In this document: in pieces, positions 6,029 to 60,920 of the stretch | How the letters are laid out: each line of letters opens with the position of its first letter | How positions within the stretch are numbered: position 1 is the stretch's first letter | Assembly (NCBI RefSeq): GCF_051105105.1 | Contig: NZ_CP185339.1 | Source of the DNA: Nannocystis pusilla | GTDB taxonomy: Bacteria; Myxococcota_A; Polyangia; Nannocystales; Nannocystaceae | DNA length: 64,000 nt | Strand: one strand, 5' to 3' | Notes under the pieces: model-generated | Databases searched by the model: none | The model's input: the letters and a program-made list of their open reading frames with translations, nothing else | Told to the model about the DNA's origin: nothing | Position numbers and translations under genes: made by a program

Positions 6029-6187
6029 CCGAGAGGTCATGCCGCCGGGGCGGCTCGTGCGCGCAGGTCCTCATGGCCATCCGACCGTGGAGCTCGTCGA
6101 ACGCGGCGCAATTCGAGGGCGCCCGCGCATGTCCCCTGCGGTGGGGCGGCGGCGGTCCTTCCGCTGCAGGCGACCGCGCGCGGCGTG

Positions 6188-6215
6188 GACATGTCCTTTC
6201 GGGCATGTCCATGCG
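6188..6215. repeat. GGACATGTCC repeat pair downstream of the LDLa lipoprotein stop
   Basis: The sequence ggacatgtcctttcgggcatgtcc has two cores 14 bp apart. Confidence 0.7.
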
Positions 6216-14710: not shown

Positions 14711-14790
14711 GCGTTCGGGGCATGTCGCGGAGGACATGTCCCGACGGGACGGCGCGTCGGGACATGTCACGTGGGACATGTCCCGCGCGC
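14711..14790. repeat. 14-bp-phased GGACATGTCC array (5 units, one degenerate)
   Basis: CATG cores at 14721, 14735, (14749 degenerate), 14763 and 14777, between the repeat-protein stop and the rlmE stop. Confidence 0.85.
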
Positions 14791-21704: not shown

Positions 21705-21775
21705 AGGGACATGTTCTTGCGGGCATGTTCATGAGGGCATGGCCTCAGGGGCATGGCGCATGGGACATGTCCGAT
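21705..21775. repeat. 14-bp-phased GGGCATG/GGACATG array (5 units)
   Basis: Cores at 21710, 21724, 21738, 21752 and 21766. Confidence 0.85.
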
Positions 21776-54934: not shown

Positions 54935-55187
54935 CGCGCGGGGCCGGACGACGAAAGCGGCCGGTCCAGCCGGGAGTGGAGCTCGCGCCCGAGTCGTCGC
55001 GCGGGGCCGGACGACGAAAGCGGCCGGTCCAGCCGGGAGTGGAGCTCGCGCCCGAGTCGTCGCGCGGGGCCGGATGACGAAAGCGGCCGGTCCAGCCGGG
55101 AGTGGAGCTCGCGCCCGAGTCGTCGCGCGGGGCCAGGCGCTGCGAGCGGCAGGTCGGGTGAGCCGGTGGAGCTCGTGGCCGAGTGGT
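54935..55187. repeat. Three near-perfect and one degenerate tandem copies of a 63-bp unit
   Basis: The unit gcgcggggccggacgacgaaagcggccggtccagccgggagtggagctcgcgcccgagtcgtc repeats at 54935, 54998 and 55061. A degenerate fourth copy lies at 55124-55187. Confidence 0.8.
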
Positions 55188-55217: not shown

Positions 55218-55990
55218 TCAGGCCGCGCGGCGGAGCTCGAGGCCGAGTTCGCCGAGCATGAGGGCGGCGGACAGGAGCAAGATCCAGGCGATCCAGCGGC
55301 GCAGGCTGTCGGGGTCGAGGTCGCCGGTGCGGCGGGCGCCGAGGTTGGCGCCGAGCAGGGTGAGCGGGGTGACGACGGCGAAGGCGGTGAGGTCGACCTG
55401 TCCTTGGAGGAAGGTGGCGACGCCGGCCGACAGCCCGGTGACGGCGCCGATCGCCATGTTGGTGCCGACGGCCACGGGCGGGGGGACGCGGGCGTAGCGG
55501 ATCATGGCCGGCAGGCGCAGGCTGCCGAGGAGGAGGCCGACGAGGCCCGAGATCGCGCCGAGGACGGCGCCGACGACGACCTCGGCGAGGACGGCGAAGG
55601 TGCGCGAAGGGACATGTTCGGAAGGACCGGCGGGCTCGGGCCGGGGCCGCAGCATGGCGGCGCCGGTGAGCAGGAGGACGCCGGCGATGGCGGCCTTGAG
55701 GAGGCGGGCGTCGACGCTGCCGGCCCAGCGCGCGGTGGCGAAGGCGGCGACGGCCGAGGGCGCGCCGACGGTGGCCAGCAGCCACAGGCTGACGCGGCCG
55801 TCGCGGGCGTGACGCCAGGTGCCGGTGAGGGTGCCGGCGGTGGAGATGGCGAGGCTGGTGGCGGCCCCGACGACGGGGCTGCCGAGGACGTAGACGAGGA
55901 GGGCCACCCGCAGCTGACCGAGCACGAGCCCGACCGTGGCGCCGATGTAGCTGAGGCCGAAGGAGACCAGCGCGATGAGCGCCAGCGCGA
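55218..55990 (-). CDS. TauE/SafE (DUF81) family anion exporter; no canonical start codon
   Basis: Two TauE half-repeats of TM helices with GxxxG-rich segments. The N-terminal helix [22 protein letters not shown] lies upstream of the GTG given in the ORF track, and no ATG/GTG/TTG was found there. A GGACATGTTC repeat unit (55600-55625) lies in-frame in the central loop ([11 protein letters not shown]). Confidence 0.65.
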
Positions 55991-56148
55991 GGATCTCGGT
56001 GGAGCGCAGGCGCCGACGCTATCACGCGCGCGGCGAGTCCGGGGCAGCCGCGCCGACGCGAGCGCCGACATGAGGTGGCGTTCATGATCGCAGCGTTCAC
56101 GCCTCGCGCGATGCGAGGCCGCGTGCATCGGCGTCGGCGCGAGCGATC

Positions 56149-57003
56149 GTGTCGGCGGTGAAAGCCGGGAGGCGGCTTGACAGGCGGGCGCGCGGGGGCG
56201 GACGCTGCGGCGGCGTGACGGAGCGCGGAGACACTGCGGCGGCGGAGGAGCTCGCAACGGGGCTCTCAGGGCCGACGAGGCCGCGCTGGGTGGTGATCCA
56301 CTGGACGCCGGAGGCGCTCGGGCTGGTGCGGGCGATCGCGGCGGCCGAGCCGGCGCCGGAGCTGACGCTGATCGGGCCGGCGCCGGCGGACGAGGTCGCG
56401 GCGGCGCTGGCCGAGTTGCCCGCGGGACATGTCCAAAAGTACTGGCAAGGCTCGGCGAGCGGCGGGGTCGAGGCGCTGGCGCGCTTCTTCGCCGACACCG
56501 CCGGGCTGCCGGCGGCCGACGCGATCATCGTGCTGCCGCTGCGCGGCCACGGCGAGACCGACGCGTTCTCGCGCCTGGTGTGCACGGCGATCCTGCGCGC
56601 CTGCAAGGGCAAGCCGCCGCACGTGGTGGTGGCGGTCGAGGACCCGGAGGCGACCCACGAGTTCGAGGGCCTGGGGGTGGCGACGATCTTCTACCCGGGC
56701 TTTCTGCGCGCGGCGCTGCTGGCCCACGCGTGCATCGACCTCGGGGCGTTCCGCTTCATGCTGGCGCTGCTCGGCGGGCGCCTGCGCGTCGAGACCTGGC
56801 CGGTGCCGCCGGAGCTGCGCGCGGGGACGTTCCGCGAGGCCTGCCTGAACGTGGAGGTCGACCGCCGCGGCCGCCCGGTGACGCTGATCGGGCTGTTCGC
56901 GCCCGGCGAGGGCGGGCCGGACGCGATGCTGCTGAGCCCGTCGCCCGCCCGCCCGCTGCGCGACGCGAGCGCGCTGCTGGTGCTGACCGGGGAGGCCGAG
57001 TGA
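56149..57003 (+). CDS. Soluble RCK/TrkA-like (Castor/Pollux-type cytosolic domain) protein; start uncertain
   Basis: Rossmann-like alternating patterns ([38 protein letters not shown]) resemble the C-terminal domains of the downstream channel gene. Confidence 0.35.
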
Positions 57004-57083
57004 GACGCGGGCGCGGGGTGCGGCGGCAGGACGACGCGGACGGCGCGAGCTCGTCGCGGGCGCGGTGGCCTGGTCGTCGGGGC

Positions 57084-59408
57084 ATGTTCTCTCGGACATG
57101 GCCGATCGCTACTGTCTTCTTGGGCATGTTCCTGCAGACAGGCGCGGCGCGGGCGGGCGAGGCGATCGTGGTCCGCTTCGGCTCGGGGGCGAAGAAGGGC
57201 GGCTTCGACGTGACCGCGCACGCGCTGGCCGAGGCGGTCCAGGGCGAGGGGCGGGTGACGATCGCGCCGGAGGCGACCCGGGGCTCGTGCGAGAACGTCC
57301 ACAAGCTGCTGTCGGGCGAGCTCGACGCGGCGCTGGTGCAGTACGACGTGGCGGCGGAGGCGTTCAAGGCCGGGCTGGCCGACGCGGACGCGGGCGACAG
57401 CGCGATCCCGAAGGGCGGGTGGATGTGCAAGCTGTCGCCCGAGGAGGCCGACAAGGCCGAGCTGCGGGTGATCGCGGCGGTGTCCGACGCGGCGGTCCAC
57501 GTGCTGGTGCGCCGGCCGGTGCGCCTCGACGACTTCGCCGAGATCGGCCGCGAGCCGCTGTTCATGGGCAAGGACGGCTCGGGCAGCTACGAGACGGCCA
57601 AGGTGATCCTCGGCGCGGCCGGCCACACCGCGGAGCAACTGCCGCTGTTCACGGGCACGGCCGACGAGGCGCTGGCGGCGATGAGCCGGCGCGAGCTGCT
57701 GACGATGCTGCGCACCACCGAGCCCGGGCACGCGGAGATCCGCGACGTGCTGGCGTCGGGCCTGGCGACCCTGAACCCGCTGCCCGAGGGGGTGCTAAAC
57801 CGCCTGATCGACGGCTACCCGTACTACCGGATCTGCCCGATCGAGACCGGGACCTATCCTGGCCTCGAGTACAGCATGCCGACGGTGTGCGTGAGCTCGG
57901 TGGTGCTGGTGGCGACGCCGCGCGAGCGGGTCGAAGACGAGAGCTTCTTGGCCGACCGTCGGCTGGCGGTCGAGGCGATGATCCAGGGGCTCAAGAAGCT
58001 CGCGCGCGACAAGCAGTACGCGAGCCTCAAGATCCGCGTGGAGTGGCGCGGGTTCGCCGAGCGCGAGCCGATCCCGCTCCACCCGGTGGCCGAGCTGCAC
58101 GAGACCAGCGAGCGCCGGCAGGCGTGGCTGCAGGGCGGGGCGTTCGCGGCGGCGCTGGGGTTGGCGCTGTACCTGGTGCGCCGGGCGCTGCGGCGGCGGC
58201 GGGTCCCGGGCGCGGGGATCGAGAGCCAGCTGTCGAACCCGCTGGTGCCGTTCGCCGCGTTCGCGTGCGTGGTGACGCTGTCGACGTTCATCGTCTGGTC
58301 TCTGGAACATGACTCGAACGCCAGGCTCAGGACGCTCAACGACTCGTTCTGGGAGATGAACACGTTCGCCACCGGCAACTTCACGACCGAGACGCTGAAG
58401 ACGCCGACGGCGCGGCTGGTCGGGGCGGCGGCGACGATCCTCGGGCTCGGCCTGCTCGCGTGGTTCACCGCGACGCTGACCAACATCTTCGCGCAGGAGC
58501 AGACGCGGCTGTGGCGGCGGCTCAACCGGCACCTGGTGGTGCTGAACTTCCGCGAGGACATGCTGCCGCTGATCCGGCTGCTGCGCAGCCCGGGGCCGAC
58601 CCGGCACCGGCCGCTGCACGTGGTGGTGTCCGACGCGCTGCCGCGGCGGGTGCGGCTGCAGCTGGCGCGCGTGAAGGCGCTGACGATCCACCACTCGAAC
58701 CCGGAGGTGCCGGAGGACCTGGCGGGGCTGCGGCTGCCGCGGGCGTCGCGGGTGATCGTGCTCGGCGACGGCGACGGGTCGGGGGCCAGCTACGATCCGC
58801 TGCGGATCGCCCGCGCGGTCCATCAGGCGTGCGCCCGCGACCCGCTCGGCGGCGGCCAGCGAGCGCGGACGCTCGGGGTGGCGGCGACGTCGGTGGAGAT
58901 CGCCCGCACCGCGCCGGCGCTGCCGGTGACTCTGGTCGAGACGTCGGAGGCGGAGCGCGAGGAGGTGTTCTCGCCGTTCGCGGCCTGGCTGGTGCCGGTC
59001 GATTGCCAGGCGCTGGCGCACCGCTGGCTGGTGATGGCGTGCCGCGACCGCGCGTTCGCGGAGCTGTTCAACCGCGTGGTGGCGTTCGCCGACGACAACG
59101 CCGAGGTCTACACGGCGCCGGCACCGACCTGGCTCATCGGACAGCCGTGGCGCAAGGTCCGGCGCGCGTTGCTCGAGGTGCAGGGCCGCGGCGGCGCGGT
59201 GCCGCTGGGGCTGTATCGCGCCGCCGATCCGGGCGGCAAGGCGCCGGCGGGCGGGACGTCGCACGCGGAGCTGCGGCGGCGGCTGATCGTCAACCCGCGG
59301 CCGGACGAGACGCTGGTGCCGGGCGACCTGATCGTGGCGCTGTGCGAGGACGAGGCCGACCTGGTGCGGATCGTGGCCGAGAGCCGCAAGGTCGCGGCGC
59401 CGGGCTGA
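57084..59408 (+). CDS. Fusion protein: periplasmic TAXI-type solute-binding domain + 2-TM pore domain + tandem RCK/Castor-Pollux-like cytosolic domains
   Basis: Signal MFSRTWPIATVFLGMFLQTGAARA. TAXI-like PBP2 motifs (GS.EN..L..GELDAALVQYD, GKDGSGSYETAKVILGAAG). TM1, a pore-helix-like segment FWEMNTFATGNFTTETL and TM2. Then RCK-like segments (HLVVLNFRED..., ASRVIVLGDGD). The ATG and signal-peptide coding are supplied by a GGGCATGTTC/GGACATGG repeat array (57078-57140). Confidence 0.65.
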   Translation: MFSRTWPIATVFLGMFLQTGAARAGEAIVVRFGSGAKKGGFDVTAHALAEAVQGEGRVTIAPEATRGSCENVHKLLSGELDAALVQYDVAAEAFKAGLADADAGDSAIPKGGWMCKLSPEEADKAELRVIAAVSDAAVHVLVRRPVRLDDFAEIGREPLFMGKDGSGSYETAKVILGAAGHTAEQLPLFTGTADEALAAMSRRELLTMLRTTEPGHAEIRDVLASGLATLNPLPEGVLNRLIDGYPYYRICPIETGTYPGLEYSMPTVCVSSVVLVATPRERVEDESFLADRRLAVEAMIQGLKKLARDKQYASLKIRVEWRGFAEREPIPLHPVAELHETSERRQAWLQGGAFAAALGLALYLVRRALRRRRVPGAGIESQLSNPLVPFAAFACVVTLSTFIVWSLEHDSNARLRTLNDSFWEMNTFATGNFTTETLKTPTARLVGAAATILGLGLLAWFTATLTNIFAQEQTRLWRRLNRHLVVLNFREDMLPLIRLLRSPGPTRHRPLHVVVSDALPRRVRLQLARVKALTIHHSNPEVPEDLAGLRLPRASRVIVLGDGDGSGASYDPLRIARAVHQACARDPLGGGQRARTLGVAATSVEIARTAPALPVTLVETSEAEREEVFSPFAAWLVPVDCQALAHRWLVMACRDRAFAELFNRVVAFADDNAEVYTAPAPTWLIGQPWRKVRRALLEVQGRGGAVPLGLYRAADPGGKAPAGGTSHAELRRRLIVNPRPDETLVPGDLIVALCEDEADLVRIVAESRKVAAPG

Positions 59409-59669
59409 CGGCGCGGCGCGCGACGCGGGCAGGCGCGCATGGGCGCCGGAGCGCGCTGCCGGTCCACGCCTCGCGCTCGGAGTCGGAGGGTCTGCAGGCT
59501 GCGGCCGCAGCGGCGAGGTGAACGAGCTGCAGGTCGCGACAGCGGTCGATCGCAGCGAGGATGCGGTAGCGAGGTCGCGACGCGGGCCGTCGACCCCACG
59601 CGCGGGCGCGAGTCGCCTGCCGCGCGCCGGTTGACTGCGGCGGCGGTCAGGTCGTATGCGAAAGATGAG

Positions 59670-60869
59670 ATGCTGCCCTCTCGCGTCGTCCTCGCGTGGT
59701 CTTCCGTGCTCGTCGTCGGCTGCTATTCGGGCGTCGCGGAGGTGACCGAGAGCATCGGCGCGCCGGAGACCGCGAGTGAGGCGACGAGCACCGGCGCGGG
59801 CGCGGCGAGCAGCGAACCGGAGACGAGCGATGCGAGCGCGCCGGGCACCGGCGAGGCGTCGACTTCGGGACCGCCGACGAGCACGAGCGGCGCCGGGACG
59901 ACGACCACGGGGCCGGACGAGGTGTCCTCGGGGCCAGGTCCGACCGGCGACGGGACCTCCGGCGCGGCTTCGGCGACCACCGGCGAGCTCACCACCGGCG
60001 AGCTCACCACCGGCGAGCTCACCACCGGCGACATCACCACCACCGGCGAGCCGATCGATCCGGCGGCGGAGGTGTGCGCGCGCTGGACGGCGGACCGTAC
60101 GGACATGTCTGAAGGGACATGGAGCGGGGCGGTCGCCGGCTGTCAGGCGGGGGACACGGGCGCGCCGGGCCGCGACAACGCGCTCAGGCTGATCAACTTG
60201 TACCGCTGGCTGGCCGGGCTGCCGGCGGTCGGGCACGACCCCGGGCTCGGCGCCAAGGCGCAGCAGTGCGCGCTGATGATGCACGCCAACGGGCAGCTGT
60301 CGCACGACCCGCCGATGCAGTGGGACTGTTACACCGCCGACGGGGCGCAGGCGGCGAAGAACAGCAACATCTCGTCGACGCCGGGCGTGGTAGCGGTCGA
60401 CCTCTACATGGTCGACCCCGGCAACGCGACGACCTTCGGCCACCGGCGGTGGATCCTCTCGAACAAGCTCGGGCCGGTCGGGCTCGGGTCGACGGCCGTC
60501 AACTCGTGCATGTGGGTGATCGGCGGGCAGGGCGGCGGCGACGCGGCGTGGACGGCCTGGCCGCCGCCCGGGGTGGTGCCGATCGCCGCGATCCACGTGC
60601 CCGAGGTGCCGTGGTCCGACGTCGACGAGACGGGCTGGACGATCCAGAGCGACGCGATCGACCTCGGCGCGGCGCAGGTCAAGATCAGCGAGGGCGGGGT
60701 CGACCGGCCGGTGAAGACGACGGCGCTCATGGGCGGGTTCGGCTCGGCCAGCGCGATCGCCATGACGCCGCAGGGCTGGACCTCGGAGGCCGGCAAGACC
60801 TACACGGTGGCGGTCAGCGGGGTGCCGCAGCCGTTCAGCTACGACGTGCAGGTGGTCGCCTGCCCATGA
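59670..60869 (+). CDS. CAP (CRISP/Ag5/PR-1, SCP) domain lipoprotein with a Ser/Thr/Gly-rich linker
   Basis: Lipobox LVVGCYSG. (GELTT)x3 tandem peptide repeat. The CAP core LINLYRWLAGLPAV...AQQCALMMHANGQLSHDPP..WDCYT..GAQAAKNSNI..HRRWIL. A GGACATGTCTGAAGGGACATGG repeat pair at 60100-60125 is in-frame (TDMSEGTWS), and the stop codon lies inside the next repeat array. Confidence 0.75.
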   Translation: MLPSRVVLAWSSVLVVGCYSGVAEVTESIGAPETASEATSTGAGAASSEPETSDASAPGTGEASTSGPPTSTSGAGTTTTGPDEVSSGPGPTGDGTSGAASATTGELTTGELTTGELTTGDITTTGEPIDPAAEVCARWTADRTDMSEGTWSGAVAGCQAGDTGAPGRDNALRLINLYRWLAGLPAVGHDPGLGAKAQQCALMMHANGQLSHDPPMQWDCYTADGAQAAKNSNISSTPGVVAVDLYMVDPGNATTFGHRRWILSNKLGPVGLGSTAVNSCMWVIGGQGGGDAAWTAWPPPGVVPIAAIHVPEVPWSDVDETGWTIQSDAIDLGAAQVKISEGGVDRPVKTTALMGGFGSASAIAMTPQGWTSEAGKTYTVAVSGVPQPFSYDVQVVACP

Positions 60870-60873
60870 GGGA

Positions 60874-60920
60874 CATGTCCGTACGGGCATGGCCGAGCGG
60901 GCATGTCCCGACGGGCATGG
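60874..60920. repeat. 14-bp-phased GGACATGTCC / GGGCATGG array (4 units)
   Basis: Cores at 60874, 60888, 60902 and 60916, starting inside the CAP gene stop codon (cccaTGAgggacatgtcc). Confidence 0.85.

Follow-up and report, generated by a model that had tools for sequence, protein, structure and literature searches.

Two adjoining genes on the plus strand of a 64,000-nucleotide stretch of Nannocystis pusilla DNA (contig NZ_CP185339.1; the whole stretch is referred to as the window) probably encode a single complex, namely a tetrameric P-loop cation channel whose gating would depend on a periplasmic ligand and on a cytoplasmic ring of eight RCK domains, four of them tethered and four free. The architecture of the channel subunit, a protein of 774 aa encoded in a single open frame at positions 57084–59408, is well supported by domain searches and AF2 modelling: a signal peptide and a periplasmic solute-binding domain of the TAXI family are followed by a linker transmembrane helix (TM0), a pore unit consisting of outer helix M1, pore helix and inner helix M2, and a single RCK domain in the cytoplasm. 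The gene upstream of it (56149–57003) encodes a soluble, complete RCK protein that is proposed as the free subunit of the gating ring. All features described below lie on the plus strand unless stated otherwise.

An earlier, sequence-only reading had described the downstream open reading frame as a fusion of binding domain, pore and gating domains. Both open reading frames were found at these coordinates, with the motifs GSCENVHKLLSGELDAALVQYD, GKDGSGSYETAKVILGAAG and FWEMNTFATGNFTTETL all present, and a genuine three-part fusion rather than two genes with a missed stop was borne out: no stop interrupts the frame, and the same layout is kept by more than 100 homologs of full length (approximately 775–830 aa; 94% down to about 45% identity). 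The channel protein is 94% identical to a protein of Nannocystis exedens; its homolog search returned 124 matches, mostly full length, and the survey of domain architectures revealed TAXI-pore-RCK proteins also in MAGs of Acidobacteriota, Planctomycetota, WOR-3 and others. Candidate starts of the channel gene are ATG 57084 and the in-frame GTG 57000, the latter overlapping the upstream stop codon as GTGA.

The membrane part had been expected to hold two transmembrane helices; the M1-P-M2 pore was recovered, but the protein possesses a third helix, TM0 (58119–58181; aa 346–366), marked by a hydropathy peak over AWLQGGAFAAALGLALYLV, located within a continuous AF2 helix (aa 334–371) and succeeded by an Arg-rich loop with six Arg residues. 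The presence of TM0 places the pore in the orientation of K+ channels. Ahead of M1, a conserved cytoplasmic segment (58218–58253; aa 379–390; consensus LEGQLSNPLVPF) contains the residues E380, L383, N385, P386, P389 and F390, which are invariant among 84 homologous sequences, and may serve as a coupling element. M1 (58242–58316; aa ~387–411; AF2 helix and hydropathy peak) aligns to the outer helix of K+-channel-type pores; it is followed by the pore helix with the selectivity-filter region (58332–58391; aa 417–436, TLNDSFWEMNTFATGNFTTE; AF2 helix 418–430) and by the pore-lining inner helix M2 (58404–58499; aa ~441–472), in which G454-L-G456 and a WFTAxLT motif are invariant. Profile searches supported the pore helix as well as the TAXI fold (the latter by Pfam NMT1_3, see below): the family profile matched the pore regions of BK, MthK and KCNQ with E-values from 1e-10 to 1e-29 and, over pore plus RCK, BK with 3e-29 and MthK (residues 32–325) with 4e-24, and the alignment was colinear from the pore to the C-terminus. 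Pfam searches with the Nannocystis protein alone gave only sub-threshold matches in this part (Lig_chan, E = 0.06, 13.6 bits versus a cut-off of 30.8; TrkA_C, E = 0.095), so that the channel and RCK assignments rest on the profile and on transitive homology; in the AF2 monomer model, the transmembrane and RCK region is of low confidence (pLDDT ~50–70).

The non-canonical filter noticed in the sequence-only reading was confirmed by profile and alignment as part of a P-loop pore. The residues A429-T-G-N-F433 (58368–58382 by translation) occupy the position of the K+-channel TVGYGD and align also to SG[LFG][EF] of distant TAXI channels; the K+ selectivity signature T-V-G-Y-G was not found in the filter of any of the 84 sequences, all of which read A-T-G-N-F, and F422, W423 and M425 are likewise unchanged in 84/84. 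As this filter has neither the second glycine of TVGYG nor the aspartate of CASTOR, the protein is not a canonical K+ channel and should not be classed as K+-selective; judging from the filter residues, it is perhaps non-selective for cations.

The RCK domain of the channel (58524–59396; aa ~481–771; AF2, phmmer and family profile) directly follows M2. Two RCK-like domains had been assigned to this chain, an assignment that has to be revised: the C-terminal 300 aa constitute one RCK, composed of a Rossmann N-lobe (strands A–F, without GxGxxG), a helix-turn-helix and a TrkA_C-like C-lobe, with a poorly modelled insertion at aa 585–613 (AF2). The proposed affinity to the gating domains of CASTOR, POLLUX, Slo and MthK was upheld, since the family profile matched CASTOR RCK1 with 1.4e-42, DMI1 with 6e-39 and MthK with 4e-24, and phmmer returned full-length matches to TAXI channels bearing Pfam Slo-like_RCK, TrkA_N and Castor_Poll_mid domains. 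Castor_Poll_mid was not detected by Pfam in the Nannocystis protein itself and was seen only in distant relatives. The tethered RCK retains a single one (E619) of the three positions that hold Ca2+ ligands in MthK.

The upstream gene, which had been regarded as coding for a free RCK-type domain, indeed does so. It may start at GTG 56149 (284 aa) or GTG 56215 (262 aa), the latter giving the length of an N. pusilla protein with 100% identity. Its AF2 model (pLDDT 80) displays a six-stranded Rossmann N-lobe, a helix pair and a C-lobe, and the top Foldseek matches (E ~1e-9) were the gating ring of LjCASTOR (1.4e-9), the MthK RCK and MtDMI1. The free RCK is paralogous to the tethered one, as seen by comparison with the channel RCK profile (hhalign: 99.2% probability, E = 3e-19, 229 columns). 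Its residues D116 and D143 are invariant and E145 is near-invariant; they are located at the positions of MthK D184 and E212 and of CASTOR D442 and D444, the latter pair aligning with D143 and E145. In the MthK sequence used for this alignment, the landmark residues fall at the published numbers. The presence of acidic residues at Ca2+-ligand positions suggests that the intracellular signal is probably a divalent cation.

According to the homolog and locus comparisons, the free RCK family occurs only beside the channel gene. The gene pair recurs, usually with an overlap of 4 bp, at five further loci of the Nannocystaceae type, namely in Paraliomyxa, Nannocystaceae ST9, Plesiocystis, Enhygromyxa and a metagenomic relative with 32% identity, and nine additional pairs of channel and free-RCK matches were each situated on contigs equal in size. 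The 4-bp overlap of the called genes suggests translational coupling; in the window, such coupling would require GTG 57000 to be the start of the channel gene. Upstream of the pair lies a divergent gene on the minus strand (55218–55925) for a membrane protein of the TauE/SafE family (Pfam TauE, E = 3e-34). The same divergent arrangement was seen in L003, L005 and L030 and was absent in L001 and L029, i.e. it is present in four of six Nannocystaceae-type loci; any link between this conserved neighbour and the channel is conjectural.

In MthK, the M1-P-M2 unit is likewise followed directly by one RCK, and the gating ring requires additional free RCK subunits. There, the free RCK has the same sequence as the tethered one and originates from an internal start. 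The analogy drawn in the sequence-only reading holds in part: relatives of ~1000 aa, which contain RCK1 and RCK2 in one chain, support a pairing of tethered and free RCK, whereas the Nannocystis ring would be built from the products of two genes and not by way of an internal start, the free RCK being a diverged paralog from a separate, usually overlapping upstream gene. In a comparison of the free RCK with one of these ~1000-aa relatives, the sole match was to the RCK2 region, and this match was weak (57% probability). The Nannocystis channel further deviates from MthK by its ATGNF filter in place of TVGYGD, by the additional TM0 and periplasmic TAXI domain, and by the loss of most Ca2+ ligands in the tethered RCK. 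In the distant clade with an SG[LF]E filter and a single RCK, no free RCK gene adjoins the channel gene; the free partner is thus not universal in the wider family.

For both RCK proteins, the best structural and profile matches were obtained with CASTOR, POLLUX and DMI1 (see above), and the CASTOR filter (ADS/AGNHA) shares with ATGNF a non-K+ sequence with [ST]-G-N. In contrast, CASTOR is a eukaryotic protein of the nuclear envelope that carries RCK1 and RCK2 in one chain, a tandem also present in Slo, and has no extracellular sensor. Its filter residue D265, which is suspected of setting Ca2+ selectivity and is required for current (PMC6697748), corresponds to Ala429 in Nannocystis.

The altered filter and the eroded Ca2+ site of the tethered RCK would also fit a receptor with a degenerate, non-conducting pore, in which the ligand signal is transmitted solely by a conformational change of the RCK, perhaps regulating another protein; the TauE membrane protein encoded next to the channel in most of the Nannocystaceae-type loci might be cited in favor of such a role. 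However, pore helix, filter and inner helix (including G454/G456) show little or no variation among 84 sequences that range down to ~45% identity, which is the pattern expected of a working permeation path, and CASTOR, which does not possess TVGYG either, still conducts (PMC6697748). A receptor of this kind is therefore considered unlikely.

The N-terminal part of the channel subunit starts with a signal peptide (57084–57155; aa 1–24, MFSRTWPIATVFLGMFLQTGAARA|GE), recognizable by its hydrophobic N-terminus and an A-x-A end immediately ahead of the start of the TAXI fold (aa ~28); the N-termini of homologs are equivalent, and cleavage would follow aa 24. Export by this signal peptide positions the TAXI clamshell in the periplasm. 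The presence of a signal peptide and a TAXI-type binding domain (57156–58097; aa 25–338), as seen in the sequence-only reading, was substantiated by Pfam NMT1_3 (80.9 bits, cut-off 27, E = 1.6e-22) and by the fold match to PDB 1US4 (TMt, i.e. target-normalised TM-score, 0.78), an entry that is also matched by sequence (E = 3e-15); the stricter model NCBIfam TIGR02122 scored slightly under its cut-off (81.9 versus 84.35 bits). The best seven Foldseek matches comprised six TAXI entries of the PDB (1US4, 8U79, 4DDD, 9IBO, 8S4J, 9IBP; TMt 0.74–0.81), and the modelled two-lobe clamshell (pLDDT >90 across the domain) superposes on solved TAXI structures. Family-specific features are an insertion at aa ~99–124 and four invariant cysteines. 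Pocket residues were mapped by structure and sequence alignments with glutamate-binding TAXI proteins and their conservation was assessed over 84 homologs: S68, Q86, G167, S168 and T211 are invariant (84/84), D135 is found in 82/84 and R210 in 71/84 sequences. Ser68 and Gln86 of the glutamate-binding proteins are kept, and Arg210 replaces a tyrosine; by its residues, the pocket would suit a small carboxylate-bearing or amino-acid-like molecule.

In an alternative reading, the TAXI domain would capture a substrate and pass it to the pore, and the pore itself would carry the substrate in a binding-protein-dependent uptake. Indeed, the characterised TAXI proteins are all substrate-delivery subunits that serve TRAP membrane components; GltS has recently been proposed as a further partner, and a TAXI-GltS fusion exists (PMC12344293), which also provides a precedent for a TAXI domain fused to a membrane protein. 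An uptake function would likewise be compatible with the non-canonical filter. In addition, some orthologs carry tandem TAXI domains, an arrangement reminiscent of ABC importers, which may have tandem binding domains. The partner in Nannocystis, however, is a channel-type pore with RCK gating and not an elevator-type secondary transporter; its membrane part is homologous to the pores of tetrameric cation channels, and we know of no member of this fold that carries organic anions or amino acids. Moreover, the predicted ligand is anionic or zwitterionic (pocket Arg, Ser and Gln), as opposed to the conserved acidic residues E408, D410, D420 and E424 at the pore entrance. Uptake through the pore is consequently regarded as improbable.

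No greater weight is given to an RCK-gated channel whose TAXI domain has ceased to bind a ligand and acts in the periplasm as a structural cap or as an assembly or localisation domain. Such a loss would agree with the marginal TIGR02122 score, with the substitution of several glutamate-site residues in the channel TAXI family (Y45→F, E125→A/S/G, Y200→R, D157→S) and with the exchange Q86→K in the first repeat of some tandem-TAXI orthologs. Yet few positions of the domain are as well conserved as those of the pocket, five of which are unchanged in all sequences; this speaks for selection to maintain a defined binding site and against decay. Finally, NCBI and JGI name the homologs “TAXI family TRAP transporter solute-binding subunit”, a designation that accounts for no more than residues 1–340 of the 774, the rest being pore and RCK. 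No DctQM gene for the TRAP membrane component was found next to the gene, either in the window or at the nine related loci inspected; the domains present in the protein suffice to refute an ordinary TRAP subunit.

The preferred reading of a ligand-gated and RCK-gated channel invites comparison with GluR0 and the ionotropic glutamate receptors, which likewise combine, by fusion, a tetrameric P-loop pore with a clamshell of the periplasmic-binding-protein fold. Among the solved TAXI structures, the closest one binds L-glutamate and was deposited under the name “putative GluR0 ligand binding core”; the weak Lig_chan matches to the pore lie far below cut-off. The glutamate receptor family possesses a family-3 binding domain split as S1-M1-P-M2-S2 and a Lig_chan pore (PMC2950845). 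In contrast, the binding domain of Nannocystis belongs to the TAXI (NMT1_3) and not to the family-3 binding proteins, is continuous and ends before TM0. The pore of ionotropic glutamate receptors is inverted, whereas the additional transmembrane helix of the Nannocystis protein results in the K+-channel orientation; a cytoplasmic RCK domain is present in addition.

In the proposed mechanism, binding of a small carboxylate-bearing or amino-acid-like ligand would close the TAXI clamshell, and this closure might reach the pore via TM0 and the invariant cytoplasmic segment ahead of M1; alternatively, the closed TAXI domain might dock on the outer mouth of the channel. As a K+-oriented pore has its gate at the cytoplasmic end, a long way from the TAXI domain, the route of coupling is speculative. 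Beneath the pore, four tethered and four free RCKs would assemble as a mixed eight-subunit gating ring that receives an internal input, probably a divalent cation. The net role of the complex would be to convert an external chemical cue, conditioned by the internal ionic state, into a flow of ions or a shift of the membrane potential.

No description of TAXI-pore-RCK proteins or of the combination of a TAXI channel with a free RCK was found in the literature searched. To our knowledge, the opening of a P-loop pore by a binding-protein clamshell has been well studied only in glutamate receptors, where the evolution of the coupling is still debated; the same task has apparently been solved here with another binding-protein family, a full additional transmembrane helix, the opposite pore orientation and an added RCK ring. 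More than 100 database entries named “TRAP transporter solute-binding subunit” are channel fusions, and their annotation should be corrected. If the channel conducts, it would offer a bacterial, probably tractable model of two-input gating by an outside ligand and an inside ion, and a natural test of whether clamshell closure acts by docking or via a peripheral helix; it would also add a new function to the TAXI proteins, since these are treated only as transporter subunits in the TAXI literature searched. Tentatively, and with somewhat less confidence than in the complex itself, we suggest that the family may represent a second, independent case of binding-protein gating of a P-loop channel, built unlike the glutamate receptors, in which a mixed ring encoded by two genes acts as coincidence detector, the channel opening only in the joint presence of a metabolite outside and an RCK ligand (probably a divalent cation) inside the cell, and that it may translate chemical cues into electrical or ionic signals in social myxobacteria and in members of several other phyla.

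The open reading frame at 57084-59408 (+) translates without interruption into a putative channel protein of 774 amino acids, and the one preceding it at 56149-57003 (+) into an upstream protein of 284 amino acids; both reading frames are real, and all motifs quoted in the sequence-only reading are present in their translations. The upstream protein shares 100% identity with a hypothetical protein of Nannocystis pusilla and the channel protein 94% identity with a protein of N. exedens, which assigns the window to a Nannocystis genome (Myxococcota); a search of 5.8 billion proteins returned 124 homologs of the channel protein, mostly full length (775-830 aa) and with identities down to approximately 45%. 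All 124 originate from Nannocystaceae-type myxobacteria (Nannocystis, Enhygromyxa, Plesiocystis, Pseudenhygromyxa, Paraliomyxa and related MAGs), where they bear the database name TRAP solute-binding subunit. Since full-length homologs occur throughout this group, the fusion is a conserved gene and no result of a missed stop codon: this alternative fails on the open frame and the 124 homologs.

The N-terminal part carries a typical signal peptide (ending A-R-A), matches Pfam NMT1_3 with 80.9 bits (cut-off 27) and scores just below the cut-off of NCBIfam TIGR02122 (81.9 versus 84.35). The closest solved structures by sequence are those of the glutamate-binding TAXI proteins of Thermus (1US4/8U79, E approximately 3e-15) and Vibrio (8S4J/9IBO); in the AlphaFold model, the pLDDT exceeds 90 over aa 28-335, and TAXI proteins account for all seven of its best Foldseek rows (six PDB entries; TMt, the target-normalised TM-score, 0.74-0.81). 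Signal peptide, NMT1_3 match and the 1US4-type sequence and fold matches support the proposed periplasmic TAXI-type domain.

The glutamate site of VcGluP (S75, Q93, G156, M201, Y45, D157, E125 and Y200; PMC11574862) was mapped by alignment onto an 84-sequence family alignment: S75, Q93, G156, M201 and D157 correspond to S68, Q86, G167, T211 and S168, each conserved in 84 of the 84 sequences, Y45 to F41 (Phe in 70, Tyr in 12), Y200 to R210 (71/84) and E125 to a small, variable residue, adjacent to which D135 is present in 82 of the 84. Judged from this alignment, the pocket is strongly constrained, yet no copy of the glutamate site, and its probable ligand is a small molecule that bears a carboxylate or resembles an amino acid. 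Specific to the family are an insertion at aa ~99-124 and the cysteines C69, C115, C251 and C269 (codons 57288-57290, 57426-57428, 57834-57836 and 57888-57890 (+); each invariant in 84/84), among which disulfide bonds are likely. One of these cysteines directly follows the predicted ligand-binding Ser68, and another lies inside the insertion. Orthologs from Enhygromyxa, Plesiocystis (locus L029, 4001-7285) and Pseudenhygromyxa (P0011, P0014, P0015 and P0035) contain two tandem TAXI domains ahead of the same channel; in three of these four, the first repeat has Lys at the position of the key pocket Gln, and in the second repeat Ala replaces the following Asp. These substitutions suggest that the repeats differ in, or have lost, ligand specificity. 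The idea that the approximately 1100-aa homologs (P0011-P0015, P0035) join the upstream RCK to the channel was rejected, as they carry tandem TAXI domains.

Hydropathy revealed three membrane segments in the channel protein (aa ~347-365, 385-407 and 443-468), and the AF2 model places helices at 334-371, 387-411, 418-430 (short) and 441-472; the loop following the first membrane helix contains six arginines. The two-TM pore claimed beforehand was thus retained as a module of M1, pore helix and M2, and its total had to be corrected, with hydropathy and AF2 adding a third helix (TM0) between the TAXI domain and M1. The sole topology compatible with a periplasmic TAXI domain has TM0 running from outside to inside and M1 back to the outside, the pore helix entering from outside and M2 again leading inward; the C-terminal domain after M2 is then cytoplasmic and the pore oriented as in K+ channels. 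In glutamate receptors the pore orientation is opposite to that of K+ channels, whereas the pore described here is predicted to be K+-channel-like. Membership in the iGluR/GluR0 group, as suggested by Lig_chan matches and by the designation of 1US4 as 'GluR0 ligand binding core', was rejected on topology and scores.

A pore-region profile aligned the family with the pores of K+ channels and of distant TAXI-linked proteins; where K+ channels have TVGYGD at the filter, the distant TAXI channels have SG[LFG][EF] and the window protein ATGNF. As anticipated, the filter is non-canonical, and the 84-sequence alignment shows it to be invariant (A429-T-G-N-F433) together with F422, W423, M425, G454, G456 and W460-F-T-A463. 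In CASTOR, the filter reads AD(S/A)GNHA and Asp265 is needed for current (PMC6697748), in contrast to the Ala at this position in the channel here. Given the ATGNF motif and this Ala, the protein is no canonical K+ channel and has no CASTOR-type Ca2+ filter; its sequence does not reveal the selectivity.

In the model of the C-terminal part, Rossmann strands A-F span aa 483-639, interrupted at 585-613 by an insertion of poor model quality; after them come a helix-turn-helix (641-667) and, at 674-771, an alpha/beta C-lobe. The RCK identity assigned to this region stood; the number did not, as the model shows one RCK in place of two. Single-sequence Pfam and NCBIfam scans gave no channel or RCK family above threshold for either window protein, the channel protein alone showed a weak TrkA_C match (E=0.095), and a profile of the Nannocystaceae family alone barely reached DMI1 and KCNQ in the PDB. 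A strong RCK/channel signal emerged only after distant TAXI channels had been added to the profile. Searched exhaustively by phmmer, aa 345-774 yielded 86 relatives, the distant ones of which were again TAXI fusions, aligned over the whole query with E values down to 3.5e-12 and bearing clear Slo-like_RCK, TrkA_N and Castor_Poll_mid domains. Built from the channel protein and ten such distant relatives, a profile matched the CASTOR gating ring (1.4e-42), DMI1 (6e-39), BK channels (3e-29, pore included) and MthK residues 32-325 (4e-24) in the PDB, which agrees with the proposed RCK gating on a pore.

For the upstream protein, the AF2 model (pLDDT 80) had the CASTOR ring (1.4e-9), the MthK RCK domains and DMI1 as top Foldseek matches; the upstream-family profile matched DMI1 and CASTOR only, and weakly, in the PDB. 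Paralogy to the channel RCK was visible only by profile-profile comparison of the two families (99.2% probability, E=3e-19, 229 columns, whole RCK covered); direct BLASTP against the channel C-terminus gave no significant match (E=0.84). Fold matches and paralogy thus uphold the reading of this gene as a free RCK. In five other loci (Paraliomyxa, Nannocystaceae ST9, Plesiocystis, Enhygromyxa and a metagenomic relative of only 32% identity) it directly precedes the channel gene and shares 4 bp with it, and nine further pairs of channel and upstream-RCK matches stem, pair by pair, from equal-sized contigs. Relatives of approximately 1000 aa combine TAXI, pore, RCK1 and RCK2 in a single chain, and in one of them the RCK2 region was the sole match of the free RCK profile (57%, E=1e-4). 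Sequence comparison and models point to the free RCK protein as the partner of the channel: RCK fold, paralogy, conservation of the gene pair and the tandem RCK1-RCK2 relatives support a predicted gating ring in which four tethered RCK domains combine with four free ones.

Between 56997 and 57087, a GTG in the channel frame (57000) shares bases with the RCK gene's stop codon in the form GTGA, so that the coupled arrangement of the five related loci may hold in the window too; this start and the annotated ATG at 57084 are equally possible from the sequence. If used, GTG 57000 would add 28 Arg-rich N-terminal residues. A scan of 55800-59700 for promoters and terminators found none, which is unsurprising at the region's G+C content of approximately 75%. 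Divergent from the pair lies a gene for a TauE/SafE-family membrane protein (55218-55925 (-)), also present in the ST9 (L003, 4288-5145), metagenomic (L005, 3077-3853) and Enhygromyxa (L030, 2139-3041) loci, one of these three being only 32% identical, and absent from the inspected Paraliomyxa and Plesiocystis loci; a functional link to the RCK-channel pair is possible.

Over both strands, the window holds 30 copies of the near-palindrome GGRCATGTYC (0.4 expected), in short arrays spaced by ~14 or 42 bp and often at gene ends (e.g. 6187-6210, 14732-14783, 21707-21772, 57080-57131 and 60871-60908); one pair, 57080 and 57122, extends across the annotated start codon and first 16 codons of the channel gene. 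The motif resembles a repeat spread through the genome or a family of regulator sites, and its copies account for the recurring 'GHV / TCP / DMS' peptides in all six frames. Further repeats are a 63-bp unit at 54935-55134 (3.2 copies, 99% identity) between an IucA/IucC-FhuF-like gene and the TauE gene, and a 15-bp unit at 59976-60041 (4.4 copies), whose translation, repeated TTGEL, lies in the N-terminal low-complexity stretch of a secreted protein with a CAP domain (59439-60869).

With respect to an intracellular ligand, MthK and the free RCK were aligned to one profile; in the MthK sequence used, D184, E210, E212 and TVGYGD occupy their published positions. In this alignment, MthK D184 falls on the invariant D116 and E212 on the invariant D143 of the free RCK, and the tethered RCK retains E619 only, at the position of E210. 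The free RCK residues D143 and E145 also correspond to D442 and D444 of CASTOR; a GxGxxG nucleotide motif is absent from both RCKs. The simplest conjecture, of low to moderate confidence, would be that a divalent cation is sensed inside, mainly by the free RCK subunit.

As the gate of a K+-oriented pore is cytoplasmic, a direct pull on the inner helix of the kind that operates in glutamate receptors would be unavailable here. The closed, ligand-bound TAXI domain might instead dock onto the outer mouth of the channel; alternatively, binding might be transmitted from the TAXI domain through TM0 to the invariant cytoplasmic segment ahead of M1. In the model, TM0 and the end of the TAXI fold form one continuous helix, and the pre-M1 segment (aa 380-390, consensus E-G-Q-L-S-N-P-L-V-P-F) is invariant in the 84-sequence alignment. 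Docking would fit the tandem-TAXI orthologs better than the TM0 route.

When single genomes representing each species were scanned with the related SG[LF]E-filter clade as query, members of this clade turned up in MAGs of Acidobacteriota/Thermoanaerobaculia, Planctomycetota (Sedimentisphaerales, Phycisphaerae), WOR-3, Hydrothermota, Abditibacteriales, Myxococcales, Chitinophagales and one archaeon. Most loci matched from TAXI domain to C-terminus and several in the pore and RCK part alone; pore-RCK proteins devoid of a TAXI domain exist too. Overall, the proposed architecture and its interpretation are supported once corrected for TM0 and for a single in-chain RCK, the second being encoded upstream. 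No description of a TAXI-channel fusion was found in the literature library searched by full text, including papers on TAXI proteins, TRAP transporters, CASTOR and prokaryotic glutamate-receptor relatives, which is no proof of absence. All modules belong to known types, and binding-protein-gated P-loop channels are already known; the combination of TAXI domain, pore and RCK, its topology and the putative two-gene ring appear to be undescribed.
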